A stretch of DNA of 64,000 nucleotides from the NCBI GenBank assembly GCA_964540475.1, contig CAZIMC010000002.1, positions 6,709-70,708 of the forward strand, read 5' to 3'. Position 1 is the first letter of the stretch; each line of letters opens with the position of its first letter. The translations under genes and the position numbers were made by a program. Shown one piece after another: positions 4,601 through 52,821 of this stretch. This stretch comes from an uncultured Gammaproteobacteria bacterium. GTDB taxonomy: Bacteria; Patescibacteriota; Microgenomatia; UBA8517. The notes beneath the pieces were generated by a model. That model did no database searches, was not told the origin of the DNA, and worked only from the letters and a program-made list of their open reading frames with translations.

Positions 4601-5165
4601 CTTTTCGTTGGGCGGTCGAAGCAGAGAAGCTGTTTTCAAGATATGCCCTGTAAGCTGTAAGCGTCCCCTCTGATACTTTCAGATGACCCAGCCAGGCGAG
4701 GAAGTGGCGCACATCCGAAACGTAATTTTTAATTGTATTTTTAGAAACACGAAGTAGAGTTAAGTGGGTCTTAAAGCTGCCGATAATGCTCTCAAAGTCG
4801 TTTTTGTGCGGCAAGACGCTTAGGTTTTGTAGTCCTTGCGTAAAATCTGTATCCACCAACTGTCTGTTTACCAAAAATCGGGACAAAGCTCTTAGGGTTG
4901 AAAGTCTCCGGTTTATGGTTTTAATGGGGGTGTTAAGTGTAAGTAAGTGCTGCTTGTAATCCTTTGATATGTTTGGGTGTATAAAGGGAATACTTTCAGT
5001 AAAACTGTCTACAAAGACGCCATCCTGTCTTATTTTGTCAACAAACCACTGGGCGAAATGGTTTGCGTCCGACTTGTAATTTTTAAGTGTCATAAAACTT
5101 CTACCCGAGTTATCCAAGTCGAGGATAAAGTTTGTTAGTGTGGGGTCAATTGCTGAATTTTTCAT
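1692..5165 (-). CDS. Giant membrane-anchored surface protein. It has two N-terminal tyrosine-recombinase-type core-binding (SAM-like) domains, one TM helix, a beta-rich fibre-like ectodomain, and an internal Peptidase_S74 (intramolecular chaperone / autoproteolysis) motif.
   Basis: 1157-aa ORF. N-terminal repeats LKNYKSDANHFAQWFVDK and IKNYVSDVRHFLAWLGH resemble the phage-integrase N-terminal SAM-like domain. TM helix GGVLVLIVGTGIILL. SDSRLKQNIAPVEDALTKIKSLEAVTYSWID...GLIAQNVENVFPEAV matches the S74 self-cleavage consensus. Confidence 0.7.
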   Translation of the reverse strand: MKNSAIDPTLTNFILDLDNSGRSFMTLKNYKSDANHFAQWFVDKIRQDGVFVDSFTESIPFIHPNISKDYKQHLLTLNTPIKTINRRLSTLRALSRFLVNRQLVDTDFTQGLQNLSVLPHKNDFESIIGSFKTHLTLLRVSKNTIKNYVSDVRHFLAWLGHLKVSEGTLTAYRAYLENSFSASTAQRKAVSIKKFLDWARKNHITLQITARDAVIKPELTPQATVVFPESRKKASSLFKALFSGGVLVLIVGTGIILLDNENFFTPTPTLPEDILSSEQIPSGSTSVLGAYQEALTRVYSEAGVIKLEGDAPGIVSDQALLLQGQELVLSTPDASDGDITLNPDGKGKLNVILEGEEGNLFGAAAANLNSGSLFYGYVGNDSGTYDLLVFQTGSDPETKFQIDANGNTSMAGSILGVFDVNLTGDLRIGESVRFDSGGGLANITGYNQTQGRFEINQLADDYALIRKNITKDMNPSTSDLLVLDLNEIEQEAGSATNTLVVTRSGGLPDSYAIYVPKGNVLIRDNLTVGETFKANGNVTLGNSIENNFTIRATSSFLNPITIEGTATQSIALAVFNETGSNSPLTASVAGETKFEIKNNGDAYFYGSGTTCVIGDGAGVTCASDSRLKQNIAPVEDALTKIKSLEAVTYSWIDPTRNQRSNLGLIAQNVENVFPEAVQYIAHDIKGVDYASLVVPLVKAVQELDEKVEKGVIASSHIFTEKIIAASVVAANLIAENIKAGTITATKIAIEESLIALDIITTNITAGTLVTKKLVAESSYIATATVDNLLISSGLVTPSVKTALITPNSGQDLVVRLESSELEPESRFVVQNTDQVEVSSIDTRGNAYFAGSISAADATLSGTVNSNQLAVSNDATIAGTIYADRVIANFVESPDGLTKEKILEIENLLKEIEFNQKLLSGLAQTTEVGTDEVATDNNLDSTYNNLSSLSLNHLFVTDQAAFFSMSVSTSLAFGTDMVISSQDNSINTLFAPLSLQSLALAPIDLMAGKVRINTNGDVEIFGNLYLTGNIHAQNAFFGTDAAIDASGSAEFRQVQTQKLIIAADIASPSASLATKQIIESNASAGKATVAAGLNEIIVRNENVSDKTLVYVTPTSTTKNRVLYVKAKGEGFFIVGFSNVLDVDVEFNWWVIDLDSAEE

Positions 5166-5721
5166 TTATTATTGTCAGGCACGAATTACACAGATTACAC
5201 TGCTTATACCATTAAAAATTGACGGCTTAGTTATGTCAATGGTATTTTACACGCACGGGGCTAGCTTGGACTAATTACTGTTTTCATGCATCCTTATAAC
5301 ACAATTACCGCATAAATGTCACGCACGAGTAGGCTATTTTTACCATGACAGATTCGTCCTATAAGAACGTAAGATTGCAAAAGTGAGCTAATGTTTTCGT
5401 GCCTATTTCTACCATTGCGGAATATTGCGGTAAATGATTTCCGCAGGCATGTTGAAGCTGCAATCCGATAGCTATGCTACTAATTGGTGTGCTAAAGTGT
5501 AATTAGCAGACTGCTAATTTGAGTGATAGGAATTTTAACCAGTATTTTGGCCCGTGTGGTGGGCTATTTGTATTGCTGCTAGTTACTTATATTTTATTAC
5601 ACTAAAGACGTTTGCTTGAAGAGTTTACAGAACCTGGCTACTGGTCAAATAGTCACTATAATTGCTATTATTATTTTAATCCAGGCTCTACACTTTCTAA
5701 TTGCCAGCTAATAATCATACT

Positions 5722-5729
5722 TGTATAAT
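5722..5729 (+). promoter_or_regulatory. Extended -10 (TGtTATAAT) 8 nt upstream of the leuS ATG, suggesting a leaderless or near-leaderless leuS transcript.
   Basis: tgtataat at 5722-5729 and ATG at 5738. No SD sequence lies between them. Confidence 0.3.
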
Positions 5730-5737
5730 TTACAAGT

Positions 5738-8659
5738 ATGGTGAGCAAAAATATTACCTACGATCATAGGTCAGTTGAGGCTAGATGGCGGGATTACTGG
5801 GACAATTCAGGACTATACAAAACTGATCTGAATGCTTCGAGGGGACGTTTTTACAATTTATGGATGTTCCCGTATCCTTCCGGGGAGGGTCTACATGCCG
5901 GGCACGCTTTTGCTTCAACAGGTAGCGACATTTACGGCCGTTTTATGAGAATGAAAGGTAGAGAAGTGTTTCAGCCAATCGGCTACGACTCATTTGGCAT
6001 TCATTCTGAAAATTTTGCGATCAAGACAGGTGAAACGCCTCAAATAATGCTTACACGCACAACTAAGCACTACGAAGCACAGTTAAGAAGCCTGGGCCAC
6101 GGCTATGATTGGAGTAGAGTGTTGAGTACTTCTGATATAGATTATTATAAATGGACACAGTGGCTATTTGTCGAAATGTTTAAGGCTGGCCTTGCATACA
6201 AGAAAAAAGCTAGCGTTAATTATTGTCCTTCGTGCAAGACGGTGTTGGCAGACGAGCAGGTAATGACGCCAAAGCAGGCTGGGAAAGAACCCAAAGACGC
6301 AAGGGGTAATAGGGTTTCTGGAACTGATGATACCCGAGTTTGCGAGCGATGTGGTACGGTGGTCCAAAAAAAAGAATTGGATCAGTGGTTTTTTAGGATT
6401 ACCGACTATGCAGACCGGCTACTTTCTGGTTTAGATAAAATTGATTGGAGCGAGCGCGTTAAGATTGCTCAAAGAGAGTGGATAGGGCGGTCCGAGGGGC
6501 TTCGGATCCAATTCCAAATTACAAATTCCAAATTACAAATTCCGGTGTGGACTAAGTTTTGGGAAACAATATATGGGGCTACTTTTCTGGTTGTTGCACC
6601 CGAATACGCACAAAACGAGCTTGTCCACTTGATTCCCCAGGAAAATAAAAAGAAAGTTCTTGAATATATCAAAATGTCTCTTAGTAAGTCAGAACAGCGG
6701 AGGAAAGAAGAGGCAAAAGAAAAAACCGGAGTGTTTACAGGAATTTACGCTGTAAATCCGGCAAATGGTCAAAAGATCCCTGTTTGGGTTACCGACTATG
6801 TGTTATTGGGTGTTGGAACGGGTGCTGTAATGGGAGTTCCTGCGCACGACAAGCGCGACTTTGAATTTGCAAGAAAATTCAACTTGAGACTTCTCCCTGT
6901 TGTCAAACCTAAAGATAGCGCATATAGAAGCTATTTGATGGGTGCAAAAGATATATCAGATAAAGATCTGGAAGATATCAAAGTAATGCTTGTCGAGACC
7001 GATAAAGACGGAGACAAAAAGCTTATCATACCTTCGGATTCACTTGCTGAATATAAAAAGCTTATAAAAGAGAAGTTAGACTTTGGATTTTGGAATGAAG
7101 TGGTGGGAGATACTGTATGGTTTTGCTTTAAAGATAAAACTGGTAATACAACAGAATATATATTATCAGAAAATAATATGTCAGAAATTGCTAAAAAATG
7201 TTCTGAGTTTAACAACGATCCGCTTGAAAAAACAGAGAACCTGTGGCTCTATTTAGCAGAGAATGATTGGTATCAGCCACTCATTGTTCAAGAAAATGGC
7301 GGGGAGTTAATTAACTCAGGGCGGTTTGATGGCATGTCCGCCTGGGGAGAGGGTAAGAAAAAGATGGCTGAGTGGATGATTAAGGAAAGTTTTGCCGAGT
7401 GGAGCACGACTTACCATTTACGAGATTGGTTAGTAAGCAGACAGCGCTACTGGGGGCCTCCGATTCCAATGATCTACTGCCCGAAATGCGCCAAGGAGGG
7501 CAGGAGCTGGCTTAGTCAAAATGAAGCTAACGTTAGGAAAGATCAGACAGACTGGACTCATGCGGGTTGGTACCCTGAAGAAAATTTACCTGTCATCTTG
7601 CCAGAAATGGATAACTATCAGCCCTTAGGTACCGGCAAAAGTCCTTTGGCATCTGTGCCTGATTTTTATGAGGCTAAATGTCCTTACTGTGATGGCGATG
7701 CTACTCGCGAGACAGATGTTTCAGATACATTTGTTGATTCCGCGTGGTATTTCTTAAGATATCCGAGTGTTAATGCAGAAAGTAATAGTAAATTACCCTT
7801 TGATCCAGGAATAACAAAGAAATGGTTACCAGTTTCACTATACTTTGGCGGTGCCGAACATTCAGTGCTGCATTTGATGTATGCCCGTTTTGTAACAATG
7901 ATGCTTTATGATTTGAAGCTAGTTGATTTCGAGGAGCCTTTCCCGAAGTTTTTTGCCCACGGTTTAATGATCAAGGACGGTGCAAAGATGAGTAAATCCA
8001 GAGGAAATGTGGTTAACCCGGATGAGTATATTGAAAAATATGGCGCAGACACCTTGAGACTTTACACCATGTTTATGGGGCCAATGGATGGATATCCGGA
8101 TTTTCGTGACAGTGGGATTGAGGGCATGAGGAGATTTATTAATAAGGTTTATAAACTTTTCGGTGAAGCATTGGTGGAGGAAGAAGCGAATGAAGTAATC
8201 ACAAAACTGCATCAAACCATAAAAAAGACTACCGAAGATATTCAAGGTTTTAGATACAATACCGCAATTGCGTCAATTATGGAATTGGTAAATCTTATCC
8301 AGGTCAAAGGTACTTCAGAAAATACACTAAATGTACTAGCCAGACTCCTGGCGCCATTCACCCCGCACTTAGCCGAGGAATTATGGCAAGAAGTGTTGAA
8401 GCAGAGCGGGTCAGTTCACAATGCAAGCTGGCCAGAACACAATCCTGAATTGATAAATGTGGATCAAGTTGAGCTTGTAGTTCAGGTAGACGGAAAAGTT
8501 CGTGCCCAATTAATGGTAGGCATTAATCATTCCAAGGATCGTGACTTTGTATTCGATTTAGCCAGAAGGGAGCCTAAAGTCGTTAAATGGCTAGAGGGTA
8601 AAGAGGTCAAAGATGAGATATTTATTCCTGAAAAGCTCATTAACTTTGTTACTAAATAA
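5738..8659 (+). CDS. leuS: Leucyl-tRNA synthetase
   Basis: HAGH (HIGH) motif near the N-terminus and KMSKS motif (KMSKSRGN), 973 aa, class I LeuS architecture with editing insertion. Confidence 0.95.
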   Translation: MVSKNITYDHRSVEARWRDYWDNSGLYKTDLNASRGRFYNLWMFPYPSGEGLHAGHAFASTGSDIYGRFMRMKGREVFQPIGYDSFGIHSENFAIKTGETPQIMLTRTTKHYEAQLRSLGHGYDWSRVLSTSDIDYYKWTQWLFVEMFKAGLAYKKKASVNYCPSCKTVLADEQVMTPKQAGKEPKDARGNRVSGTDDTRVCERCGTVVQKKELDQWFFRITDYADRLLSGLDKIDWSERVKIAQREWIGRSEGLRIQFQITNSKLQIPVWTKFWETIYGATFLVVAPEYAQNELVHLIPQENKKKVLEYIKMSLSKSEQRRKEEAKEKTGVFTGIYAVNPANGQKIPVWVTDYVLLGVGTGAVMGVPAHDKRDFEFARKFNLRLLPVVKPKDSAYRSYLMGAKDISDKDLEDIKVMLVETDKDGDKKLIIPSDSLAEYKKLIKEKLDFGFWNEVVGDTVWFCFKDKTGNTTEYILSENNMSEIAKKCSEFNNDPLEKTENLWLYLAENDWYQPLIVQENGGELINSGRFDGMSAWGEGKKKMAEWMIKESFAEWSTTYHLRDWLVSRQRYWGPPIPMIYCPKCAKEGRSWLSQNEANVRKDQTDWTHAGWYPEENLPVILPEMDNYQPLGTGKSPLASVPDFYEAKCPYCDGDATRETDVSDTFVDSAWYFLRYPSVNAESNSKLPFDPGITKKWLPVSLYFGGAEHSVLHLMYARFVTMMLYDLKLVDFEEPFPKFFAHGLMIKDGAKMSKSRGNVVNPDEYIEKYGADTLRLYTMFMGPMDGYPDFRDSGIEGMRRFINKVYKLFGEALVEEEANEVITKLHQTIKKTTEDIQGFRYNTAIASIMELVNLIQVKGTSENTLNVLARLLAPFTPHLAEELWQEVLKQSGSVHNASWPEHNPELINVDQVELVVQVDGKVRAQLMVGINHSKDRDFVFDLARREPKVVKWLEGKEVKDEIFIPEKLINFVTK
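6509..6544 (+). repeat. In-frame tandem repeat (about 14-nt unit caaattccaaatta x2.5) inside leuS, encoding IQFQITNSKLQIP.
   Basis: ccaattccaaattacaaattccaaattacaaattcc read directly from the sequence. Confidence 0.8.
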
Positions 8660-16138: not shown

Positions 16139-16210
16139 GCCCTCGTAGCTCAATGGACAGAGCATACCCGTCCTAAGGGTGTGATGTCAGTTCGATTCTG
16201 GCCGAGGGCA
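16139..16210 (+). tRNA. tRNA-Arg (anticodon CCT). The anticodon call depends on a fold with G at position 32.
   Basis: Hand-folded cloverleaf: acceptor GCCCTCG/CGAGGGC, T-loop TTCGATT, anticodon loop GTCCTAA. Confidence 0.6.
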
Positions 16211-16275
16211 CTAAAAAATCGTAGATTTTCAGTGTAAACACTAAAGTTCTTAATAGCATTTTAGAAGTAAGATTT

Positions 16276-16347
16276 CGGGATGTAGTGAATCGGTATCACG
16301 CTGCTTTCGGGTAGCAGAGACACTGGGTTCAATTCCCAGCATCCCGA
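16276..16347 (+). tRNA. tRNA-Pro (anticodon CGG)
   Basis: Acceptor CGGGATG/CATCCCG, anticodon stem CTGCT/AGCAG with loop TTCGGGT, T-loop TTCAATT. Confidence 0.75.
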
Positions 16348-16401
16348 CCCTGGGAGAATAACCCTCGATATGATCGATGTTAATTCCTGAGTACCGACCC
16401 A

Positions 16402-23282: not shown

Positions 23283-23563
23283 TTGACAGCTAAATAAATG
23301 CGTTAATATCGGAGTCGCGATCCGAGAGCAGCGGTAATAAATAACCGACGGATGCAAACCGTAAAAAGTTGCTAGAGTGTGTCGGAAACGGAGCACTCGA
23401 AATAATTGAGGGTTTAGCCCGCGTTTCGAGTCCCGCTTAGGCGGGTTTTTTAATGGGATAAACTAATAAAGGGTGGTACCGCACGTAAGAAGTGCCCCTT
23501 CAACGGCTTAAATAATTAGGCAGTTGGAGGGGCTTTTTTGTTGCCTTAAAGGGAGTATGTTAG
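23283..23563 (+). promoter_or_regulatory. Structured non-coding leader element L1. It has a sigma70-like promoter, a hairpin containing GCAAACC, two tandem intrinsic terminators and a GGTGGTACCGC box. It is a paralog of 25620..25911.
   Basis: TTGACA 23283-23288 and TAATAT 23304-23309. Terminator cccgcttaggcggg+U6 at 23432-23451. Terminator gccccttcaac...gttggaggggc+U6 at 23494-23538. ATG at 23564. Confidence 0.55.
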
Positions 23564-24385
23564 ATGGAAAGAGAAACAACAAGAACAGAATATGCAAACC
23601 AGGACTTATGGTCATTGATGGAATCTTCATGGCCGGGAGCCGTTGTAAAGAATAAGGAAAATTTTAAATTTGGACCAGTATCTAATGTATGCATTGTACT
23701 CTGTCCTTTATACAAAAAAGGCGATATTAAGAGAACCGACATTCTTGATGTCGGTGAGAGCTTGGAAGAATCGCGGGTTTTTGGTAAGACGAAAGCATAT
23801 GAAGCTGCTTTACGAGCGTTGAGTTTTTCTTTACAAAAAACGAGCTCGTCGTTAAGGGTGAATTTTGTTATTGCCAACAAAGGAGTTTTGCTTGAAAGAA
23901 ACCCTGTTGCTGAAGATTACGAAAAGCTTAAGTACCACAACGAACTTTATACCAGATTGATTGACGAATGGGCTCAAATAATGGGATTTGAGTATATCTT
24001 GACTGATTATTTTGAGAGAGGGATTGATTTCCCAGAGTTTGTGAGGGTGACCCAAAAGATCCCGAAAAATACTGAACACAGTGAAGATATCAATAAAAAT
24101 GAACCCTTTTTGCTGATAGAATATCTTAATAGATATCTGAAGCCAGTTGAGCTGATTCAAAACAATGGCAATAATAGGCATGTTGCAAAAAGTCTCATTA
24201 AGGCGTTCGGATTGAATGCAGCCTTTTGGCTGACTGCCGGATATTTGGTATTTGACCATAAAATCCCCGAAATCATTGGAGAAAATGGAATTTACATTGT
24301 GTCGGAGAGATTTGACCCTTTATATTCCATTGTTAAGTTTACACCAAACCTTGAGAAACTAACCAGAATCCAGTTAAAAGCATGA
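23564..24385 (+). CDS. Hypothetical protein (273 aa), no recognisable domain
   Basis: Long ORF directly downstream of the L1 leader, translationally coupled (ATGA) to the next gene. Confidence 0.6.
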   Translation: MERETTRTEYANQDLWSLMESSWPGAVVKNKENFKFGPVSNVCIVLCPLYKKGDIKRTDILDVGESLEESRVFGKTKAYEAALRALSFSLQKTSSSLRVNFVIANKGVLLERNPVAEDYEKLKYHNELYTRLIDEWAQIMGFEYILTDYFERGIDFPEFVRVTQKIPKNTEHSEDINKNEPFLLIEYLNRYLKPVELIQNNGNNRHVAKSLIKAFGLNAAFWLTAGYLVFDHKIPEIIGENGIYIVSERFDPLYSIVKFTPNLEKLTRIQLKA

Positions 24386-25170
24386 AGTTCAAATTTTTCT
24401 CATTCAACAAGATAGGGGGCACATTTTATGATAGTGAGTCAGGAAGTAAAACCTTGGTTATTTATGCCATGGGGGCACCGACAGTGCCTGACAATGGCAC
24501 GCTTACCATCGCACCTTATATTTTAGATAAGAAAATTGACTTGTTTGTTCCCGATTATATTGGATTTGGCAGAAGCTATGGAAAGTTTACTCCGAAAGGT
24601 TGCATTCGAACACTCCTCCTTCTTTATAACAGTTTTAAGAGAGGGGTGTTTGGGGTCAATCATTATGAGCTTGAGAAAAGGTTTTTCAAATACAAAAGAA
24701 TAATTTTTGTAGGCAAAAGCTTGGGTGCTGTTTATGTTGTCCTCCTTCCAAAATATAAAAGGGAAATTAAGGAGATTGGAATATTTTGTGGGTCTATGGA
24801 TCAAAGCGAGCAAGGGAAAATTAAAGGTGAAGAAAGCAATAAGAGTTTTATTGAAGGCCTCTCAAAGGATTTTACCTTCTTATACAGGGGAATGAATCCC
24901 GGCATTTGGTGGAAGCATGTTGAGGATGGGGATGGACTATCGCCAATGGATAATATAGGTTATCTCGAGAATACAAGGGTTTTTATCGCTCATGGCGCAA
25001 AAGATACATGTGTTCATTACTCAAAATCAGTAAAATTTTACGAAAAGTTAGTGAAAACATTTCCCAACAAAGTATCCAGTTTTAAGCTTAGACTTTACAG
25101 AAATGGTGACCACGGAGCCTCTACCACAGACAACGCGATTAATGATTTTCTTAAGTGGATTTCAGTTTAA
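24382..25170 (+). CDS. Alpha/beta-hydrolase fold protein
   Basis: Nucleophile elbow GKSLG, downstream acidic and HG motifs (FIAHGAKD, NGDHG). 262 aa. Confidence 0.6.
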   Translation: MKFKFFSFNKIGGTFYDSESGSKTLVIYAMGAPTVPDNGTLTIAPYILDKKIDLFVPDYIGFGRSYGKFTPKGCIRTLLLLYNSFKRGVFGVNHYELEKRFFKYKRIIFVGKSLGAVYVVLLPKYKREIKEIGIFCGSMDQSEQGKIKGEESNKSFIEGLSKDFTFLYRGMNPGIWWKHVEDGDGLSPMDNIGYLENTRVFIAHGAKDTCVHYSKSVKFYEKLVKTFPNKVSSFKLRLYRNGDHGASTTDNAINDFLKWISV

Positions 25171-25242: not shown

Positions 25243-25578
25243 ATGATTGAAATTAAATTTAACCAGATGGTTTCAGGGCTAACTACTGAAGATGAGGTTA
25301 ACAGGTATGCACAAGAAGGTCATTGCAGACTTTGGGTACTTCATGCTGCCGAAACATTGATGCGCGAGTTTGGTATAACTAAAAACGAGATAGAGTTTAG
25401 GGAGGTGGAGGTTTCGCCTATGTTTTTCCACACCTTTTTAAAAGTGAGTATTGGAGAAGACAATTATTTTTTGGATGGAGCGGGAGTCAACGGTTCAGGT
25501 AGTTACTTCGGTTTAGAATGTGAGGCGCCTGTTTACTTGCAAAACAGTAGGCAGGATAGTCTCAATTTCTATATTTGA
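25243..25578 (+). CDS. Hypothetical small protein (111 aa)
   Basis: ORF only. Confidence 0.4.
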   Translation: MIEIKFNQMVSGLTTEDEVNRYAQEGHCRLWVLHAAETLMREFGITKNEIEFREVEVSPMFFHTFLKVSIGEDNYFLDGAGVNGSGSYFGLECEAPVYLQNSRQDSLNFYI

Positions 25579-25619
25579 CAATTAATACCTGTTGCAAGTA
25601 GAATAGTTTTACTTTAAAA

Positions 25620-25911
25620 AGTTAATAGGATTGCTGAGAAGGAGCACAGTAGGTTTTTCTGGTGGCCATAGAGAGAACTGGTGGTTGGTGCAAACCAGTC
25701 GTACAGAAAAAAGCGAATTACACTCTGGAGCTGGTTTAAAGTAAATTAAACCCGGGTCGCCCGTAATAGCAAAAGGCGTGTCGCGCGAGTGATAAGCCCG
25801 AAAAGGTTAAGATGGTAACATTTTAACGAATCAAGGTGGTACCGCCTTAGAATGAAGGCCCTTGTTTGAACCTAGCATGTGGGTTCAAACAAGGGCCTTT
25901 TTTGATTTTAT
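25620..25911 (+). promoter_or_regulatory. Structured non-coding leader element L2, paralog of L1. It shares the GCAAACC-containing hairpin, the AAGGTGGTACCGCC-TTAGAA box, and a terminator hairpin of different sequence but the same position (covariation).
   Basis: ggtggtaccgcc at 25836-25847. Hairpin aaggcccttgtttgaacc...ggttcaaacaagggcctt plus U5 at 25855-25903. ATG at 25912. Confidence 0.55.
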
Positions 25912-26841
25912 ATGCCAGAAAGAATAAAAGACAAACAGGAACTGAAAGATATGTTTGTGTCTCAACCGACAATTGGGACAATTCTGCGTGTGTTGGATAA
26001 TGAAGTATACAGAAATTCGCATTTAGAAGAGCGTTTGGGATGGGTGGGAATATCTGGTAGTAAGGCTAGACATGCTGGGCTTGAAGGAAAGAACGGGGTG
26101 GTGAGTGACGAAGACTTGGTTATTATCCTAAAGGGATCTTCACAAAATGACCCATTAAACATGCAAGCTTATGAACAAGTCCTTGATTGTATTAATCAGG
26201 CAACGAAAATTATGGTTGAGGAAAAGGGTATTATTCCTGTATATGCATCAACAATCAGACTGGAAGATGCGCAAATGGCGCTTGCTAGACTGATTCATGC
26301 AAGTGGTCAGATAAGGATGATACACTCTCTAATTTATCCGTCTCCTGAGGCAGTGGTTGCGTTTGAACCGCCGCTTCTGGCACGCAATCTAGTAGGCCAA
26401 GCCCTGACTCTTTGGGGTGATGAAAGAATAGCAGAGGATGTAAACCGATCAGCCAGAAATGGTGCACGCGTAGAAAACATAAACTTGACGATAGGTGGAC
26501 TTGATGGAATCAGTGATAATTTTAGAATGCTCAGAACAAATAGACATGTCCTGCCGGCTCTATTCTTGGGCCCGCAGGCCGTGCATGTTCTTGACTACAG
26601 TGTAAAATGGGCAATGGCTCAAGTTGTAGAAAAAGCTGGTGGAGCAGAATGCGCAACTTGGGGTGAAATAATAGATAATTTTCCCTCTGAGGAGGGCGGT
26701 CAATTGTTGATAGAGGTAGTAAAAAAGATTAGACTGCTTCGGGCCCAAGAGGAACATGTCGATTTGGATGAATTAGAAAATCTATATAGAGAGGTAATTT
26801 CCTTGTGGCCACTATTTACCTCTATTAGAAGCGGAAAGTGA
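25912..26841 (+). CDS. Pol-beta-superfamily nucleotidyltransferase domain protein (309 aa). It resembles the ANT/AadA-like or CD-NTase-like GS...DxD architecture. Substrate unknown.
   Basis: GISGSKARHAGLEGKNGVVSDEDLVIIL fits the hG[GS]-x9-13-[DE]h[DE]h NTase active-site motif. Confidence 0.55.
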   Translation: MPERIKDKQELKDMFVSQPTIGTILRVLDNEVYRNSHLEERLGWVGISGSKARHAGLEGKNGVVSDEDLVIILKGSSQNDPLNMQAYEQVLDCINQATKIMVEEKGIIPVYASTIRLEDAQMALARLIHASGQIRMIHSLIYPSPEAVVAFEPPLLARNLVGQALTLWGDERIAEDVNRSARNGARVENINLTIGGLDGISDNFRMLRTNRHVLPALFLGPQAVHVLDYSVKWAMAQVVEKAGGAECATWGEIIDNFPSEEGGQLLIEVVKKIRLLRAQEEHVDLDELENLYREVISLWPLFTSIRSGK

Positions 26842-27608
26842 AGATAACTTTTCTTGGAACAGGTGGTGACGGGGGTATCCCGCAAATCAACTGCAGGTGT
26901 ATAAACTGTCGTAAAGCTCTCAATAACACCAGGCTTCGACGTTTACGTAGCTCGCTTATGGTTGTCCGAGATAGCAAAATGATAGTGATGGATTGTGGTC
27001 CAGACTTTAGACAACAGCTATTAAATGCTAATATATGGCTTAAAGATATCGCCCTTATTGTGATAACACATTTACATTTTGACCATGTAAATGGACTGAT
27101 GGAGCTGTCAACTGGAGCGCCTTATAACACCCCTTTGTATACATCAGAAAAGAACAAGAATTTACTTCTTCAAATGTCTAACATTTCATATCTTGTAAAA
27201 GCAGGATATGCCAGATTTGTTACCCCCAAGCAAGCATCGGAATTTGGAGTAAGTTTGTTTGAAATTCCGCATAGCAAAAGTTTTCCCACAAGCGCGGTAA
27301 TAGTAGCAGAGAAAGATAAGTCAGTTTGGTATTCACCGGATATATCGGATATTACACAAGAGATCAATAATAAGCTGACAAAAATGTCCCTGGTCATATT
27401 TGACTCCACTTTTTTGAATGAAGATAATCTACCAGCGCATAAGTTGGGTCACATAACCGTGGAGAATTCCTCTATAGTACTTTCCAATCTAGGAAGAAAA
27501 GTTTTGTATACACACATTAATCATACAGAGGATCAACGTGACCTAAATAGATATTTGGAAAAATTTGGATTCAGGCTTGCCCATGACATGTTATCATTAG
27601 AAGTTTGA
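26838..27608 (+). CDS. PqqB-like MBL-fold metallo-hydrolase
   Basis: N-terminal LGTGGDGGIPQINCRCINCR resembles PqqB (LGSAAGGGFPQWNCNCxNC). HxHxDH motif ITHLHFDHVNG. ATGA overlap with the NTase gene. Confidence 0.65.
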   Translation: MKITFLGTGGDGGIPQINCRCINCRKALNNTRLRRLRSSLMVVRDSKMIVMDCGPDFRQQLLNANIWLKDIALIVITHLHFDHVNGLMELSTGAPYNTPLYTSEKNKNLLLQMSNISYLVKAGYARFVTPKQASEFGVSLFEIPHSKSFPTSAVIVAEKDKSVWYSPDISDITQEINNKLTKMSLVIFDSTFLNEDNLPAHKLGHITVENSSIVLSNLGRKVLYTHINHTEDQRDLNRYLEKFGFRLAHDMLSLEV

Positions 27609-27734
27609 CAGAACGATACCCCGGGGTTTATGCAATTATTGACAAGAATGATTGGTTAGTTTATCATCACTTCAATAACTTGAATTGATAATGACAATTC
27701 TTTATACATATTTAATTTCGAAAGCGGAGAGATA

Positions 27735-27759
27735 AACGCGCCACAAGCGCGTTTTTTTT
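27735..27759 (+). terminator. Rho-independent terminator (acgcgcc-acaa-ggcgcgt plus U8) ending 5 nt before the ATG of the next gene
   Basis: aaacgcgccacaagcgcgtttttttt. Confidence 0.7.
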
Positions 27760-27764
27760 GTTTT

Positions 27765-29009
27765 ATGGCAGTTGAGATTGATATACATCCACAATCAAAC
27801 GGAGTTGTTGATAGGACGGATTGGGCTCGAGAAAACCTTCCGTTTCTTGATGCAAGAGGGGAGCTTGTTTATTTGAAGGAATGGCGAGATTCAAAAAGCT
27901 CCGCAGTGGGGTGGTTGGCAAGATGGGGTGACCCAGAAGTAAATGTTTCTGGTGGAGGTGTGCGTATGAAAATAGGTGGACAACCTCATGAAGCTGTATT
28001 TCTTGCATCAACAATGTATGAAAAATTCGGCATAGCAGGACCTCAGATTAACGGATCGAAATTTGTTATAGATTATGATCCCACTGCACCAGACAAGTTG
28101 GATGTACTGGACAGATTTCTCACAGCATTTTTGCTGGATCTTGAAAATGTGGGCACTGCTGGCGACTTAAATGTTTCTGAAAGTGAGGTGGCAGGTGTTT
28201 TGGGAAGGCACGGTATAGGCAATCCACAGCAAGGAATTCTTAAGTCCTTGGGTATTGAAGGCAACCTGGGAAGGTTGACTCAACTTATGAGAATGCCTTT
28301 TTCTGAAAGTTTTAGTCCAAAGCACAGTCACCTAATGGATGTTACGGCGGGTTGGAGCACGTACATTGCTACTGAAACGTACTTTAGAAAAATGGGTATG
28401 GATTTGCATGGTCGCACAATTGCAATTCAAGGGATAGGAGCGGTTGGGGGTAGCGCGGCTTACTTTTTCGAAAAAGCTGGCGCAAGGGTCGTTGCCGCTG
28501 CTGATGCACAAGGATCCTTCCGTATCGGCCCCGGGGGATTAACGTCTTGCCTTAGAAACATAGATACGGTAACAGGATGTGTGCCTCGAGAGAAAGGGCT
28601 AGAGGTTGCGGGAGATTCTCAGGCAATTCTTCAGATTCCAGTGGACGTTTTAGTGCTCGCTGCGAAATCGGAAGTTGTGGGCCTAGAAGAAGCAAGATGT
28701 ATACAAGCCCCGCTTATAGTAGAAGGAGCAAATCATCCCATCCTGCGTGATGCCGAAAAGTATCTCACACAGCGGGGGGTAAAAGTTTTGCCAGACTTTA
28801 TTGCTAATGCGGGCACCGCTGAATTTTTCACTATTGGTATGTTGGGAAGCGAGGAACTTTCCGAACAGGGCGTATTAGACCAGGTTGCGCAGATTACTAT
28901 AAACGCTATGACAGAAACCATTGAAACCGCTGACAATTCGGGATTAACGTATAGACAGGCAGCTCAGATAGTATCTACCAATAACTTGTGGCAGAAAGTT
29001 GTGAGATAA
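27765..29009 (+). CDS. Glu/Leu/Phe/Val-dehydrogenase-family amino-acid dehydrogenase-like protein. It is visibly more G+C-rich than its neighbours.
   Basis: Rossmann GIGAVGGSAAYFFEKAGARVVAAAD and C-terminal VLPDFIANAGTAEF resemble the family. The N-terminal catalytic Lys/GGG box is not clearly conserved. Confidence 0.55.
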   Translation: MAVEIDIHPQSNGVVDRTDWARENLPFLDARGELVYLKEWRDSKSSAVGWLARWGDPEVNVSGGGVRMKIGGQPHEAVFLASTMYEKFGIAGPQINGSKFVIDYDPTAPDKLDVLDRFLTAFLLDLENVGTAGDLNVSESEVAGVLGRHGIGNPQQGILKSLGIEGNLGRLTQLMRMPFSESFSPKHSHLMDVTAGWSTYIATETYFRKMGMDLHGRTIAIQGIGAVGGSAAYFFEKAGARVVAAADAQGSFRIGPGGLTSCLRNIDTVTGCVPREKGLEVAGDSQAILQIPVDVLVLAAKSEVVGLEEARCIQAPLIVEGANHPILRDAEKYLTQRGVKVLPDFIANAGTAEFFTIGMLGSEELSEQGVLDQVAQITINAMTETIETADNSGLTYRQAAQIVSTNNLWQKVVR

Positions 29010-29012
29010 TTT

Positions 29013-30278
29013 ATGACAAAAGAGATTTTAGCTTCCTTACTTTCTCCAGAGAGGGCTGCCACTTCCATAAATGACGCATTGACAAGGGGTGTGGTGGAAA
29101 TCTTACCCGATAGGGAGAGTTTGGAAGCTGTTATGCGTGGGAATAAAATCCGGCTTTATTTAGGAATCGATCCCACAAGCCCCGATCTTCATATTGGCCA
29201 CACAGTACCCCTTCGAAAGCTTAGGCAGTTTCAGGATCTTGGACACGATGTAATCCTTTTGTTTGGTACTTTTACTGGTATGATAGGCGATCCTACTGAC
29301 AAATCTGCTTCCAGGGTCCGACTAACTCGAGAGCAAATTGAAGGAAACGTGAGTAGTTATGCTGACCAGGCAAGTAGAATATTGGACATGTCAAAAGATG
29401 CTCCCAACCCGGTTACCATACTATATAACCACGAATGGCTGGGTGAATTGAAATTTGAACAAGTTGTAGATATTGCTTCGAATTTCACAATTTCTGAAAT
29501 GCTTGATCGATCCATGTTTCAGCGGAGGTTAGAAGAAGGTAAACCTCCCAGATTGCATGAAATTTTATATCCATTGATGCAGGGCTACGACTCTGTTGCT
29601 ATGAATGTAGATTTAGAAGTGGGAGGCAGTGACCAAACATTTAATATGCTTGTAGGGCGCGATCTAATGAAAGTTTATGGTGGAAAAGAGAAGTGGGTTA
29701 TGGCAACACGACTAATTTCTGACCCTGCTGGAAACAAGATGGGTAAAACCGAGGGAAATATTGTAAACGTTCGTGATTTGCCGGAGGTTAAATACGAAGC
29801 CATTATGTCTTGGCCAGATACTGCAATTGGTGTCGGGTTTGAGCTATTAACAAATGTTCCTATGTCAGTTGTAAAAAGAATACAAGACGAAATTTTGCCA
29901 CAATCGATTGAAGGAGGTTCTGAGATTGGCATCGTTGCATTAAAGGAGGCGTTGGCTTTTCGGGTGGTAGCTGAATTGGATGGGGAGCCTGAGGCTCGTT
30001 TTGCAATGGAGGAGTTTGATCGCGTAAAAAGAAAGAAGAAGTTCCCAAGGCGAATGAGGGAGATCAGTGTACCTCGTGGATCACTAGTTGAAGATATATT
30101 AGTTGCGTCAGGTTTAGTAAAAGATGTTGATGAAGCGAGGGCTCGCATAGCCCAAGGCTCTGTTGTCCTTGGTGAGCAGCCGGTTAGAAGGAGTATGTAT
30201 GCTAATTTTGATTCGGCGATAATCTCAATCGGTAAAAACCCTATACGCTTAATAGCGCGTGTGAACACAAAGAAATAG
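29013..30278 (+). CDS. tyrS: Tyrosyl-tRNA synthetase with C-terminal S4 domain
   Basis: GIDPTSPDLHIGHTVPL (HIGH), GDPTDKS, KMGKTEGN (KMSKS). 421 aa. Confidence 0.9.
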   Translation: MTKEILASLLSPERAATSINDALTRGVVEILPDRESLEAVMRGNKIRLYLGIDPTSPDLHIGHTVPLRKLRQFQDLGHDVILLFGTFTGMIGDPTDKSASRVRLTREQIEGNVSSYADQASRILDMSKDAPNPVTILYNHEWLGELKFEQVVDIASNFTISEMLDRSMFQRRLEEGKPPRLHEILYPLMQGYDSVAMNVDLEVGGSDQTFNMLVGRDLMKVYGGKEKWVMATRLISDPAGNKMGKTEGNIVNVRDLPEVKYEAIMSWPDTAIGVGFELLTNVPMSVVKRIQDEILPQSIEGGSEIGIVALKEALAFRVVAELDGEPEARFAMEEFDRVKRKKKFPRRMREISVPRGSLVEDILVASGLVKDVDEARARIAQGSVVLGEQPVRRSMYANFDSAIISIGKNPIRLIARVNTKK

Positions 30279-33404: not shown

Positions 33405-34268
33405 ATGGCTACTTTCTTTAACTTAAATCCCATGCGTAAACCTTTCATATTATTGGCGTTTTTAGTAAGTCTTTTCGGTAGCTTTTTTGCAAGTACGGCA
33501 GTTTTTGCGCAAGCTCAGGTTACTGAGGAGAAAGTAGAATTACAGCAGCAGGTTACAGGATTAGAATTGCAACTTGAAACTCAAGAATTAGGGCCAGTGC
33601 TGCCATTTAACCCAGTTAAATACGCTATACGCCGTGCGGTGTCTGCAGGTGTTCCAGCAAACACAATTGTAATGCTACTCCTTTTACCATTAGTAGCTGC
33701 CATCATAGCTGCAACACGGCATATTGTGGGGCTTCGGGGGTTTGGGATTTTTCTTCCTGCCGCTCTGGCCGTAACATTTCTGGCGATTGGTCCGCTTTTG
33801 GGAATAGGGTTATTTTTAATAATTGTTACTGTTTCAACAATTTCAAGAATTACACTCAGGCGTCTCAAGTTAAAGCTTCAGTACTTGCCCCGCATGGCAT
33901 TAATTTTATGGTTCGTGTCATTTGCCGTTTTGGTGGTACTGTTCGCTGCACCACTGGCTCCGCTTTTGGGGTTAGCGAACATTTCTATCTTTGCTGTTCT
34001 AATATTAGCCCTGTTGGCCGAAGACTTCACCCGGGTTCAGTTAGGCAAGAGTGCCAAGGTGGCTGTGAATTTAACGATTGAGACTATTATTCTGGCTTTA
34101 ATCTCATTCTTCTTCTTGACCTTGCCTGCTATCCAAGCATTTGCACTTCTGCGACCAGAAATTATGTTACTTGGCATATTTGCTTTCAATCTATTACTTG
34201 GTCGTTACACGGGTCTTCGACTTTTGGAAATTTGGCGGTTCAGGAAAATGATTTTTAACTTGAAATGA
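33405..34268 (+). CDS. Signal peptide plus 7TM membrane protein of the type that partners RimK-like ATP-grasp ligases (7TM_transglut-like). No transglutaminase-like domain is present.
   Basis: Seven hydrophobic helices after a coiled N-terminal segment. ATGA overlap with the downstream ATP-grasp gene. Family assignment is by architecture and context, so this is an inference. Confidence 0.5.
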   Translation: MATFFNLNPMRKPFILLAFLVSLFGSFFASTAVFAQAQVTEEKVELQQQVTGLELQLETQELGPVLPFNPVKYAIRRAVSAGVPANTIVMLLLLPLVAAIIAATRHIVGLRGFGIFLPAALAVTFLAIGPLLGIGLFLIIVTVSTISRITLRRLKLKLQYLPRMALILWFVSFAVLVVLFAAPLAPLLGLANISIFAVLILALLAEDFTRVQLGKSAKVAVNLTIETIILALISFFFLTLPAIQAFALLRPEIMLLGIFAFNLLLGRYTGLRLLEIWRFRKMIFNLK

Positions 34269-35584
34269 AGTTAGCTAATGTCCTTGGTCTAAACGCAAGA
34301 TCGCAATTGTTTGCCTACAAATACAATAATCTGCGTAGTAAAAAGGTGGCAGATTCAAAAATCCAAACTGCACGGATATTGGCAAACGCCGGTGTTCCGA
34401 CCCCTCAACTTTATCAGAAGTTCAGAAATGCAAGAGAAATATTTAATTTTGATTGGCTTACATTACCTGATTCGTTTGCTCTAAAGCCAAGTAAAGGCTT
34501 GGGAGGGGAGGGTATCATTGTCATAAAAAAACGTAGCGAAGGCGGAGAAGGCTATATAACTACACAAAGGAAAAAAGTTACTCCAGATGACTTGAAACTT
34601 CACGCATTGGATATAGTAGAAGGTGCATTTAGTATGACGAGTGAGCCGGATGTTGCTTTGGTTCAGGAGTATGTGGGAAGACATAAGGCGTTTAGAAAGT
34701 ACGCCTATCGCGGCACTCCGGATATAAGAATTATAGTTTTTAATAAAGTGCCTGTTATGGCTATGCTTCGGCTTCCAACTAAAGAATCAGGGGGTCGGGC
34801 GAATATGTTTCAAGGAGCAATTGCGGTTGGTGTTGATATAGCCACGGGAATTACCACCAGGGCAGTTCTTCATGGTGATTTAATTACCTATAAACCTGGA
34901 ACTAAACGTAAACTGCGAGGAATTAAAATACCCAACTGGACAGAAGTATTAGAAACCGCAGTTAAGGCCCAGATTGCATCGGGACTGGGATACTTGGGTG
35001 TTGATATCGTATTGCACCCGGAGAAGGGACCCCAGGTTTTAGAATTAAATGCCCAGCCGGGGCTTAAGATTCAACTTGCGAATATGGCAGGGCTAAAGAA
35101 GCGTTTAGAAAGAGTTGAAGATTTAGAAGTACGCGATGCCGAGCATGGTGTTAAAATTGCAAAAGCTCTTTTTGCCTCTTCATTTGCCACCAAGGTAAAG
35201 CCGGATGAGTCACTGAAGATAATAGAGCCAGTTGAAACTGTAAAAGTTTTGTCGGCCAGCGGGAAGAAGGAAGGTGTTTTGGCGAGGATTGATACTGGCG
35301 CTGTAAGAAGTTCAATAGACAAAGGCTTAGCAGATAAGCTTGGACTAATGACTAAGGAGAACATACTTTGGAAAGATAGATATGAGTACAGGTCGGCAAC
35401 AGGTTTACAAACTCGTCCAGTAATCGGTATAACCTTTTGGTTAGGAGGAAAGAAAAAAGTTACAAGCGCTTCGGTTGCCGACAGATCGAAAATGCAATAC
35501 AAGATGTTGATTGGAAGAAGGGATATGAGTGGTTTTCTTGTAAAGCCGGAATTTACCGGCCAATCTCCTCTAGGTAGTCAATAA
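34265..35584 (+). CDS. RimK-like ATP-grasp ligase (alpha-L-glutamate-ligase-related) fused to a C-terminal retropepsin-like 'putative ATP-dependent Zn protease' domain
   Basis: ATP-grasp core (ALKPSKGLGGEGIIVIKK...VLELNAQPG). C-terminal RIDTGAVRSSID...MLIGRRDMSGF resembles the PF05618 aspartyl-protease-like domain. Confidence 0.7.
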   Translation: MKLANVLGLNARSQLFAYKYNNLRSKKVADSKIQTARILANAGVPTPQLYQKFRNAREIFNFDWLTLPDSFALKPSKGLGGEGIIVIKKRSEGGEGYITTQRKKVTPDDLKLHALDIVEGAFSMTSEPDVALVQEYVGRHKAFRKYAYRGTPDIRIIVFNKVPVMAMLRLPTKESGGRANMFQGAIAVGVDIATGITTRAVLHGDLITYKPGTKRKLRGIKIPNWTEVLETAVKAQIASGLGYLGVDIVLHPEKGPQVLELNAQPGLKIQLANMAGLKKRLERVEDLEVRDAEHGVKIAKALFASSFATKVKPDESLKIIEPVETVKVLSASGKKEGVLARIDTGAVRSSIDKGLADKLGLMTKENILWKDRYEYRSATGLQTRPVIGITFWLGGKKKVTSASVADRSKMQYKMLIGRRDMSGFLVKPEFTGQSPLGSQ

Positions 35585-36389
35585 TCCTGGAAGCAACATT
35601 TATACCGGTAGTCTTTGTAAAGCCTTCCCATTGCGGAATACTGTTTGTCTCGATCATATAAACCTTTTCTTTGTTTTGCATAAAATCTACGCCTGCAATT
35701 TCTAGGTCAAGATTTTTACATATTAGTTCAGACATGTTAAAAAGTCTCATTCTCAGGTCGGCATTTTCGACTTTCTCACCGAAACCTCCGAGGGATATAT
35801 TGGCCCTAAATTCTCCCTGTTTCGGCCTACGCTTAAAAGTACCCACCGCCTTGCCCCCCACAACTATAACCCGATAATCTCCGTCGTTTTCAAGGAATTC
35901 TTGAAGGATAAAACTTGTCAGGTTTGTGGATTCTATTGTAGCTTTAAGTTCATCATTATCTTTACAGAGGAAAACGCCTTCTCCTTTAGCGCTTATATTA
36001 CTTTTAACGACGAGGGGAAAGCCTAGAATTTTGGAAGCATTTTCAATTGCATTTCTCGAAGATTTAATGAAAAATGTTTTAGGGGTCGGTATACCCAGCT
36101 TTTGTGCTTCCGAGATTTGGTAATATTTCCTTCCTATTAAAGGTTTCGTGGCATACGCAGTGTTGATAAACGGAATACTGCGCAAGAGTGCCTCCTTTGC
36201 AACAACACTTCTTTTTTCTGGATGCCCAACGCGCCAATATATAGCCTGGTGTGACTCAAAAAAATTGCCAAAGGGCACTGGGATGATATCGGAATTGATA
36301 ACATCCAAGACATGACTCCTTCTCTTTGCCACTTCAAAGAGATTTTTGTCTTGGAAAAACTGACCCGTCGAGATTAGTGCGAATTTCAT
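35553..36389 (-). CDS. RimK-family ATP-grasp ligase (paralog 2). Start assigned to MKFALIS; the ORF track extends to 36425.
   Basis: KGEGVFLCKDNDEL and LDLEIAGVDFMQ...YMIETNSIPQWEGF ATP-grasp motifs. Confidence 0.75.
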   Translation of the reverse strand: MKFALISTGQFFQDKNLFEVAKRRSHVLDVINSDIIPVPFGNFFESHQAIYWRVGHPEKRSVVAKEALLRSIPFINTAYATKPLIGRKYYQISEAQKLGIPTPKTFFIKSSRNAIENASKILGFPLVVKSNISAKGEGVFLCKDNDELKATIESTNLTSFILQEFLENDGDYRVIVVGGKAVGTFKRRPKQGEFRANISLGGFGEKVENADLRMRLFNMSELICKNLDLEIAGVDFMQNKEKVYMIETNSIPQWEGFTKTTGINVASRIIDYLEEIGR

Positions 36390-37351
36390 ATCGTAAGTTT
36401 TGGTCCGGAAAACAAGCCGTTCCACTCCGCCAGTAGCATTATAACTAAAGTATTGGCGTGCTCAAATAAGGCGTCCTTTGATTCATTCAGATCGAGTAGT
36501 CCAGTATCCTCGTTAACTTTTTGGTAAATTAGCTCTTTATAACCTTCTAGCTCCGTCTCGTAGTCTGGATTTAACTTAAACACTACGCCGGTTTCAGCAA
36601 TCAGGTCAAGATTTTGTGAATTAAAGATATAAGACCTATTAGATTTAAAGTATTCATAAACCCAGCAATACTCTTTGTTGTTAGGGTATTTTTGGTAATA
36701 ACCAGAATCAGCAATAAGGATGTGTGTGTACGCATAAATGTTATTCAAAAAATTAAATTCTGAGGTGGTATTAATTTTAGTGGCAGGGTAAAGGAGTTTG
36801 AGAGATTTTATAACGCTATCGGTAATATTGGTTATTTCCAAATCTTTTAACCAGAATGCTAAATTTATATTCTGAACAGGATCAAAAAATAGTAGATCAT
36901 TATCTGAGAATATTTTTTTCCAATCAATTCTGCCTAATCTTGTGATGGCCACTTTATATCCTTGTGAGTTAAGATATTTGCTAACTTGGTAATCTGAAAT
37001 TTTTAGCATTAAATAAATCAAACTTTGATAATATTTTATTTCTGGATGTTTTTCGTAATACTCCCATCGTATTTTTTTGAGGGGGGATAGATCTTTAAGA
37101 AGATTTAGTTTTTCTAACCCTTCCCGTTTCTCTTTACTTATATCTCCGGCAATTTTAGCTTTGTTCTCAAAATCCCGCATTAATTCCTGGAAAGCACTGG
37201 AAAGTGGAGGAATAAACCGTGCTTGACCTGTGACTCTATACATACGCTCATAAAAGTGAAGTTTTCTGTTAGGCCTAAAGCTTTCTATTCTTTTGGCTAG
37301 ATTGGTTATGGCCCGCTCTGAAGCTTTCTTGTAAATTGGGTTTGCTGTCAT
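36386..37351 (-). CDS. Conserved hypothetical protein (321 aa) embedded between two ATP-grasp genes with overlapping stop/start codons
   Basis: ORF only. Translational coupling on both sides. No domain recognised by eye. Confidence 0.6.
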   Translation of the reverse strand: MTANPIYKKASERAITNLAKRIESFRPNRKLHFYERMYRVTGQARFIPPLSSAFQELMRDFENKAKIAGDISKEKREGLEKLNLLKDLSPLKKIRWEYYEKHPEIKYYQSLIYLMLKISDYQVSKYLNSQGYKVAITRLGRIDWKKIFSDNDLLFFDPVQNINLAFWLKDLEITNITDSVIKSLKLLYPATKINTTSEFNFLNNIYAYTHILIADSGYYQKYPNNKEYCWVYEYFKSNRSYIFNSQNLDLIAETGVVFKLNPDYETELEGYKELIYQKVNEDTGLLDLNESKDALFEHANTLVIMLLAEWNGLFSGPKLTI

Positions 37352-52715: not shown

Positions 52716-52821
52716 TCCTGAGATGGGAATATGAATTGCAAATTCATATGACTTAGCTTGCTTTATTTCAATTCTTAAGAATTTTCAAGTCGCAAGATGC
52801 GTCATTGAACCCATATTGTTT

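Follow-up and report, generated by a model that had tools for sequence, protein, structure and literature searches.

This study concerns a 64,000-nucleotide stretch of contig CAZIMC010000002.1 (assembly GCA_964540475.1, positions 6,709 to 70,708 of the forward strand; hereafter the window) from a Patescibacteria-group bacterium, and in particular a T-box riboswitch leader that is followed there by two overlapping genes, which we call X and Y. Gene X is predicted to encode a nucleotidyltransferase (NTase) of the Pol-beta superfamily and gene Y a phosphodiesterase of the metallo-beta-lactamase (MBL) fold; a dehydrogenase gene and tyrS, the gene for tyrosyl-tRNA synthetase (TyrRS), lie downstream (Table 1). 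On the sequence evidence set out below, we hold with high confidence that the leader is a complete, transcription-attenuating tyrosine T-box upstream of X and Y, and that the enzyme classes of the two proteins are as stated. The tyrosine T-box and the nearby tyrS are the most informative facts on the function of the pair. The initial annotation of this region, made from the sequence alone, had rightly seen a regulatory leader here ("leader L2") but had missed both its tyrosine T-box identity and the presence of tyrS in the same cluster.

The leader matches the RF00230 model over its full length (model positions 1-219), with 105.4 bits against a gathering score of 93 (E 3e-22). The segment GAAUUACA forms the 3' side of its specifier loop, and the UAC codon within it precedes the conserved purine. 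From the UGGU sequence of the acceptor-binding bulge, the cognate tRNA is predicted to have an A discriminator, and this bulge does complement A73 of the window's own tRNA-Tyr(GUA). The 5' arm of the terminator overlaps the 3' strand of the antiterminator, and from their sequences the two structures would compete. The leader thus has what RF00230 asks of a T-box: a full-model score above the gathering threshold, a specifier loop, a UGGN bulge and a terminator/antiterminator pair.

The nucleotidyltransferase and the hydrolase

The open reading frames (ORFs) of X and Y are confirmed as real genes by their homologues, of which X has 16 (47-66% identity) and Y about 20 (44-52%). X carries the motif G49-S50, 15 residues, D66-E67-D68 (GS-x15-DED); the initial annotation had recognised this family-invariant active-site motif, albeit with a spacing of 13 residues. 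No member of the close family departs from G49, S50, D66 or D68, and the motif is no chance match, because D66 and D68 are invariant even among relatives of 17-29% identity. Across 23 sequences reaching down to 17% identity, H138, L140, E152 and G169 are likewise invariant, and conservation is at least 90% at G49, S50, T114, E118, Y142 and Y229. E118 and its neighbour D119, the latter invariant in the close family, directly follow a strand of the model (107-112), and the predicted catalytic residues of X are G49-S50, D66, D68 and E118. The helical domain contains strongly conserved polar motifs, GLDxxSD and HxLDYxxKW, as expected of a substrate pocket.

X has no match in Pfam or NCBIfam (E up to 0.1) or in PADLOC, and no PDB sequence was matched with either the single sequence or the close-family profile. 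Among 5.8 billion proteins, 17 belong to its family at E up to 1e-3, none of them named and all from Patescibacteria or unclassified bacterial metagenome-assembled genomes. A search with the family profile yielded 28 representatives among 1.84 billion sequences, a single locus was found among 185,579 GTDB species representatives, and homologues were absent from 72,556 plasmids and 50,697 phages (tblastn). The distant relatives found by profile (17-29% identity) give weak matches to PF01909 and PF18765, and a profile built on this wider set matches, along the GS...DxD stretch, 2rff, DrrA, kanamycin nucleotidyltransferase (KNTase) and MNT in the PDB (E 9e-4 to 8e-3). In the AlphaFold2 model of X on the family alignment (predicted local distance difference test, pLDDT, 88; predicted template modelling score 0.88), three helices at the N-terminus precede an alpha/beta domain of five strands, and the C-terminal domain is wholly helical. 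Against the PDB, Foldseek places the kanamycin nucleotidyltransferase ANT(4') first, with a probability of 0.99 (range for ANT(4') 0.96-0.99), and then AAD(9), the NTase-like 3c18 and MntA, the probabilities for AAD(9) and MntA being 0.75-0.96. The global template modelling (TM) scores of the model against these matches are low (0.22-0.28), which suggests that the domains are recognised and that their relative arrangement differs. X therefore has the GS and [DE]x[DE] motifs of the Pol-beta superfamily, and the NTase fold is detectable in it both by structure and by profile.

The size and build of X are close to those of the aminoglycoside nucleotidyltransferases ANT(4') and AAD(9)/AadA, as had been proposed initially for the size and as the model, Foldseek and the family profile all bear out. 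In these enzymes, too, the Pol-beta NTase domain with its GS and DxD motifs comes first and an all-helical C-terminal domain second; they are acidic and about 250-310 aa long, and the X-family profile matches KNTase at E 8e-3. In contrast to them, X shares sequence similarity only over the GS...DxD stretch, superposes poorly as a whole, as the TM-scores given above indicate, has three extra N-terminal helices, and is chromosomal, T-box-controlled and paired with an MBL protein, with no resistance neighbourhood or plasmid copies. MntA (of the MntA-HepT system), DrrA/SidM and GlnE have the same catalytic core, and MntA and DrrA are among the fold or profile matches of X. These enzymes transfer AMP to a tyrosine hydroxyl, an activity thematically near a tyrosine-regulated operon. 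Their targets are, however, protein tyrosines, and their HEPN, Rab or glutamine-synthetase partners are absent from the X locus; X is moreover some three times as large as MntA, and its conserved helical domain is a distinct one. We conclude from conserved residues and the predicted model that X is very probably an active NTase of a new family, outside every named ANT family.

Three more specific assignments were tried for X and rejected. An antitoxin NTase of the MNT-HEPN type would have about 100-140 aa and a HEPN toxin beside it, whereas X has 309 aa, a conserved C-terminal domain and an MBL partner. The AadA/ANT-type resistance enzyme that the initial annotation had considered did not hold: no Pfam, NCBIfam or other curated model matched, no plasmid or phage homologue was found, and the neighbours are a T-box and tyrS. 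Its suggestion of a CD-NTase-like enzyme, as in the cyclic-oligonucleotide-based anti-phage signalling systems (CBASS), fell likewise, with no PADLOC match, no cGAS or DncV among 50 fold matches and no effector gene, and with a context that is always that of T-box and tyrS and never a defence island.

Y matches PF12706 (E 2.5e-23) and has the attributes of an MBL-fold hydrolase. Its closest solved sequence relative is 6B9V (E 1e-21, 29% identity), followed by PqqB, Brucella proteins with bound AMP or GMP, and PhnP; 6B9V belongs to the PhnP family and has been described as an FAD-photoproduct diphosphatase (PMC7599082). The AlphaFold2 model of Y (pLDDT 95) superposes best on PqqB (TMq 0.85), 6B9V (TM about 0.78) and PhnP, with RNase Z, YhfI and Apyc1 (7u2r) as further fold matches, and there is a weak similarity to the Apyc1 family in sequence (PF23023, E 0.004, 17 bits against a cutoff of 50). 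The family forms a clade of its own, as identity falls sharply from 44% to 34%. The N-terminal C19-x-C21-x2-C24, with the structural-zinc cysteines, is invariant in this clade, and the active site has a canonical HxHxDH motif, H78-L-H80-F-D82-H83, as in 6B9V; these four metal-centre residues and H145, D168, H205, H226 and H229 are all invariant. The initial annotation had called Y PqqB-like on the strength of its cysteines. The clade and the signature were right, but Cys-x-Cys-x2-Cys is common to PqqB, PhnP and 6B9V, and the centre is of the PhnP type, PqqB having NGDVDH where Y has HLHFDH.

None of the named families within reach accommodates Y. PqqB itself, the hydroxylase of PQQ biosynthesis, was rejected on score (TIGR02108, 88.1 bits against a cutoff of 245), on the differing active-site motif and on the absence of pqq genes (pqqA, C, D and E) from the annotated 8 kb around the pair. 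The equivalog of PhnP, which is the phosphodiesterase of the C-P lyase pathway, was rejected on score (TIGR03307, 75.6 bits against 272) and for lack of phn genes nearby, although the zinc site, the HxHxDH motif and the downstream His and Asp ligands are all kept and the catalytic and zinc-site residues fit the PhnP pattern, going by the roles of these residues in PhnP. For RNase Z (TIGR02651, 64.7 bits against 293), the HxHxDH stretch alone aligns, and the 256 aa hold no exosite insertion. On sequence and model, Y is predicted to be a PhnP-type binuclear phosphodiesterase or diphosphatase with a Cys3(His) structural zinc, and its substrate is probably nucleotide-linked.

Table 1. Positions of the elements of the T-box locus and its downstream unit in the window.
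Feature	Position	Strand	Remarks
Sigma-70-like promoter, TTGACA-18-TAGAAT	25575-25604	+	11/12 consensus matches; top site of the region
T-box riboswitch leader ("leader L2")	25627-25866	+	RF00230
Specifier codon UAC (Tyr)	25719-25721	+	inside GAAUUACA
tRNA-acceptor-binding bulge UGGU	25837-25840	+	
T-box intrinsic terminator	25854-25900, T-run to 25906	+	20-bp stem and T-run; stops 6 nt before the ATG of X
Gene X, 309-aa Pol-beta-superfamily NTase, KNTase-like two-domain build	25912-26841	+	ATG start
Gene Y, 256-aa PhnP/PqqB-clade MBL-fold phosphodiesterase (predicted)	26838-27608	+	GTG start
Promoter-like site, TTGACA-17-TATCAT	27639-27667	+	between Y and the gene that follows; L008 and L012 have TTGACA at this place too
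Candidate 14-codon leader ORF, MTILYTYLISKAER	27691-27735	+	two Tyr codons; stop codon abuts the hairpin
Terminator-like hairpin, ACGCGCC...GGCGCGT, and T-run	27734-27762 (hairpin 27734-27754)	+	near-identical in L008 and L012
Divergent Glu/Leu/Phe/Val-type (ELFV) amino-acid dehydrogenase	27765-29009	+	PF00208, E 9e-34; below every NCBIfam cutoff
Tyrosyl-tRNA synthetase, type B	29013-30278	+	TIGR00234, 281.5 bits against a cutoff of 113.8
tRNA-Tyr(GUA), predicted T-box ligand	55431-55516	-	discriminator A (A73); CCA not encoded

The pair and its surroundings in relatives

We recovered 32 loci and classified their ORFs; about 19 distinct loci carry X or an X-like gene with enough sequence around it. 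In every one of these, X or a relative of about 28% identity is immediately followed by the MBL gene, usually with overlapping stop and start codons. The pairing, whose conservation elsewhere had been left to be checked, is therefore not peculiar to this genome. The statement in the initial annotation that the gene combination is unannotated also agrees with the Pfam, NCBIfam and PADLOC scans and with the unnamed homologues. In the window the overlap is 4 nt and reads GTGA, with the GTG start at 26838-26840 and the TGA stop at 26839-26841, so that the translational coupling inferred earlier stands while the ATGA reported for it does not. A bona fide TyrRS (TIGR00234 above cutoff) follows the pair in 12 distinct loci, and, with the exception of L023, every locus whose sequence extends upstream of X has a tyrosine T-box there. 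The X-Y pair is constant in the Patescibacteria relatives and stands almost always between a tyrosine T-box and tyrS. The window and 12 of the 13 relatives inspected have UAC as the specifier codon, the exception being L019 with UUAACA.

L019 is a remote X-like operon whose T-box (about 5370-5390) has GAAUUAACAC at the specifier position instead of GAAUUACAC. This deviation may be due to a one-base insertion or to another specifier; a TyrRS gene nonetheless follows.

At least three types of TyrRS, mutually 26-39% identical, adjoin X-Y pairs (L001, L004, L019, L005 and the window compared). L001 and L004 have X proteins that are 75% and MBL proteins that are 71% identical, against 30% for the adjacent synthetases, and the reverse is seen between L004 and L019, where X is 32% and TyrRS 53% identical. 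The retention of the pair beside tyrS despite replacement of the synthetase argues against simple inherited synteny. L005 even has two tyrS genes (2260-3465 and 4776-6089) in one operon, with an M20 peptidase between them.

The pair would also appear to be regulated apart from the synthetase. Downstream of Y, the strong promoter-like site, small ORF and hairpin of Table 1 form a layout (27639-27764) that is common to the window, L008 (2150-2288) and L012 (5815-5930), the small ORFs of the latter two being MLQDIFEYKICSYPFRKGDL (two Tyr codons) and MSCPLTYYYIN (YYY). The hairpin at 27734 probably ends the X-Y transcript and forms part of the leader of the next unit, and the T-box of the window probably controls X and Y as a two-gene unit of their own, the dehydrogenase-tyrS unit having a separate leader. 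The small ORF and hairpin may act as a tyrosine leader-peptide attenuator for that unit, or for the unit running from the decarboxylase to tyrS in relatives; we looked for an alternative antiterminator fold to the 27734 hairpin and none was evident, so that this type of attenuation is a lead only. In L007, the T-box-X-Y unit is followed by an ORF with no assigned function and not by tyrS. Control of the pair by the T-box apart from tyrS, in the window and in L007, suggests that X and Y are direct targets of the tyrosine T-box and not mere passengers. This arrangement resembles the T-box tyrS operons of Bacillus (tyrS) and Enterococcus (tyrS-tdc) in having a Tyr-specifier T-box with a terminator/antiterminator switch before a tyrS cluster. 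Enterococcus tyrS-tdc is a tyramine cluster under a tyrosine T-box (PMC3315439), and, as there, a group-II pyridoxal-phosphate (PLP) decarboxylase stands next to tyrS in some relatives of the window. Unlike in these operons, two uncharacterised enzymes are the first to be encoded after the leader, the T-box unit of the window ends before tyrS, and the host belongs to the Patescibacteria group.

Apart from the PLP decarboxylase, the genes inserted in or beside the operons of relatives encode a prephenate dehydratase (PDT), a fusion of prephenate dehydrogenase with prephenate dehydratase, and an M20 deacylase of the ArgE/DapE type that is joined to a GNAT; the ELFV dehydrogenase between Y and tyrS is found in this genome only. 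A cassette swap is seen between L014 and L010, whose flanks have 95-96% DNA identity: X and the MBL gene in L014 (4048-5775) are replaced in L010 (2646-5773) by genes for a HAD-IIB phosphatase, a GH10-like glycosidase, which has the NE and SELG motifs of catalysis, and an MBL protein of only 51% identity. In both loci, a RelA/SpoT gene directly follows tyrS. The GH10-like family has about 25 members. Of the four loci inspected, L010, L031 and L032 have its gene beside or close to tyrS, and three (L031, L032 and the P0082 locus) have it paired with that of an uncharacterised protein of 565-634 aa (weak GT1 match). In L032 (198-6222), a UAC T-box drives the 565-aa protein, the GH10-like protein, two uncharacterised proteins and TyrRS, and in L031 (4115-7461) the GH10-like protein and its partner stand between tyrS and prephenate dehydratase. 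In these loci, the tyrS neighbourhood is unusually plastic.

Possible roles of X and Y

We propose, with a probability of about 0.4, that the locus is a tyrosine-starvation-inducible unit in which X and Y help to restore the charging of tRNA-Tyr, most likely through the supply or salvage of tyrosine. Some role of the pair in tyrosine metabolism or tRNA-Tyr charging, of whatever kind, is rather probable; tyrosine supply or salvage as its specific role is a tentative assignment. Uncharged tRNA-Tyr(GUA) would stabilise the antiterminator and allow X and Y to be made, in most relatives with TyrRS on the same transcript. X would then move a nucleoside monophosphate from a nucleoside triphosphate onto a small substrate other than a nucleic acid, at a hydroxyl or phosphate group, and Y would cut the phosphodiester or diphosphate linkage made by X, or a related one, the net effect being that tRNA-Tyr charging is restored. 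The likeliest route would be that a scavenged or conjugated form is made to release tyrosine or the keto acid that precedes it, in other words an 'unmasking' module. A small-molecule substrate is favoured over tRNA because both proteins are acidic (median isoelectric point, pI, 5.0 for X and 6.2 for Y). A supply role is favoured because 92% of T-boxes regulate genes for aminoacyl-tRNA synthetases, amino-acid biosynthesis or transport (PMC2494555), and also because the co-located genes mostly encode amino-acid-releasing or amino-acid-forming enzymes and the alternative cassette of L010 consists of hydrolases. Of the three functions suggested in the initial annotation, a small-molecule biosynthetic pair comes closest to this proposal.

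Several points weigh against tyrosine supply. X resembles a transferase and not a hydrolase, and an NTase co-expressed with a phosphodiesterase could run a futile cycle. To our knowledge, no natural tyrosine conjugate that requires these two activities has been described. The PLP decarboxylase found in some operons is of the tyrosine-decarboxylase group and would consume tyrosine, and no transporter is linked to the operon. The rarity of X, together with the cassette and TyrRS swaps, would suit an accessory or arms-race function better than core metabolism. This last point leads to the possibility, which we consider unlikely, that the unit senses an inhibitor: a natural TyrRS inhibitor or a tyrosine antimetabolite would lower tRNA-Tyr charging, and the T-box would respond by inducing a nucleotidylating X, a cleaving Y and an additional or replacement synthetase. 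The nearest folds to X are indeed those of antibiotic nucleotidyltransferases, ANT(4') and AAD(9), X is acidic, as ANT enzymes are, and the clade of Y binds and cleaves nucleotide-linked compounds (6B9V and the Brucella AMP and GMP complexes). At least three very divergent TyrRS types have been swapped beside the pair, and the L005 operon contains tyrS twice; GNAT and an M20 deacylase are among the neighbours, near-identical genomes differ by an exchange of the cassette, and a very patchy distribution is seen. X, however, matches no resistance model and no homologue of it was found on plasmids or in phages, we know of no drug-modifying enzyme under T-box control, and the ELFV dehydrogenase and prephenate enzymes would be more at home in a supply role. 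That X and Y are strictly coupled in translation also suggests successive reaction steps and not a pair of detoxification enzymes acting independently.

X and Y might have a function unrelated to tyrosine and merely share the tyrS leader within the compact operons of Patescibacteria, much as RNA-processing genes are passengers in the Bacillus cysES operon. The loci all come from one candidate phylum, so that part of the synteny is inherited, and the stretch between T-box and tyrS accepts insertions (the ELFV dehydrogenase, the PLP decarboxylase, M20-GNAT, and the HAD and GH10-like genes). We nevertheless think this improbable, since the adjacency persists down to about 28% identity of X and across swaps of TyrRS type, X and Y are under the T-box on their own in the window and in L007, and X occurs in no other context among the loci recovered. 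Maintenance of the 3' end of tRNA-Tyr, in which X would act like a CCA-adding or MenT enzyme and Y would trim or heal the end like RNase Z or a 2',3'-cyclic phosphodiesterase, would accord with the T-box, which ties the operon to tRNA-Tyr, and with the tRNA-Tyr gene of the window, which does not encode its CCA. It is a distinctly improbable explanation: both proteins are acidic, Y has no RNase Z exosite insertion and scores far below the RNase Z cutoff, and library scans and fold matches show X to be unlike class I or II CCA enzymes and MenT/AbiEii. All tRNAs, and not tRNA-Tyr alone, require end processing, and a replacement cassette with HAD and GH10-like enzymes would make no sense for an RNA substrate. 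Very improbable, finally, is a second messenger, a cyclic or linear signalling nucleotide made by X upon accumulation of uncharged tRNA-Tyr and degraded by Y. The NTase fold of X, the weak Apyc1-family similarity of Y (PF23023, 7u2r) and the RelA/SpoT gene just downstream of tyrS in L010 and L014 would fit such signalling, but there is no CD-NTase, SMODS or PADLOC match, no cGAS/DncV-like fold match and no receptor or effector gene, and the Apyc1 score is far under its cutoff. A synthase and a degrader made at a fixed 1:1 ratio from overlapping genes would, moreover, cancel each other out.

The superfamilies of the parts and the riboswitch class are known, and what appears to be undescribed is the X family, which has neither model nor annotation, and the T-box-X-MBL(-tyrS) arrangement, which is likewise unannotated. 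In the literature searched in full text, we found nothing relevant on T-boxes in Patescibacteria, or in the candidate phyla radiation (CPR), or on tyrS with MBL proteins. The metabolism of Patescibacteria/CPR is very poorly understood, and a dependence on scavenging is supposed. A T-box specifier is among the few sequence features that give amino-acid specificity to uncharacterised genes (PMC2494555), and here the UAC specifier marks a conserved enzyme pair as tyrosine-linked, one member of which, X, has no family model at all. We give somewhat less than an even chance to the broader view that X and Y form a new two-step pathway in the tyrosine T-box regulon of Patescibacteria, serving either tyrosine supply in an auxotrophic episymbiont or as the first drug- or antimetabolite-modifying system with a T-box sensor of TyrRS inhibition, and that X founds a new functional family of the Pol-beta superfamily. 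If true, the locus could represent a new salvage route or a new riboswitch-sensed logic of resistance.

Other features of the window

The tRNA genes of the window lie at 16139-16350, 50256-50328 and 52821-55606; those for Tyr, Arg, Pro and Trp do not encode the 3' CCA, and two tRNA-Thr genes do. The organism must therefore need a CCA-adding enzyme, and none was seen in the window. A few kb from the tyrS region (33405-36425) is a cluster of genes for 7TM_transglut, ATPgrasp_ST (with Zn_protease) and RimK-like ATP-grasp proteins. Genes for 7TM_transglut and/or ATP-grasp proteins recur near tyrS in L010 and L014 (9008-10768 in both) and in L012 (575-1705), which is probably a matter of lineage synteny.

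A second, atypical T-box lies at 23294-23502 on the forward strand (RF00230, 41 bits, E 9e-7). A 7-nt loop (GUCGCGA) replaces nearly all of its Stem I, the GGGUGGUACCGC antiterminator core and the terminator are intact, and its specifier may be GCG or CGC. It is followed by a gene for a 273-aa protein with no Pfam match (23564-24385) and one for an alpha/beta hydrolase of 262 aa that weakly matches Peptidase_S9 (24382-25170). With this leader and those described above, T-boxes are documented in Patescibacteria, short-Stem-I variants included. Just upstream of the promoter of the tyrosine T-box is a forward-strand ORF (25243-25578) with no Pfam match and with a counterpart in L012 (3373-3720). 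The two products have 111-115 aa and are 29% identical, and their Cys and His residues (EGHCRLW...FFHTF) might be those of a small thiol hydrolase.

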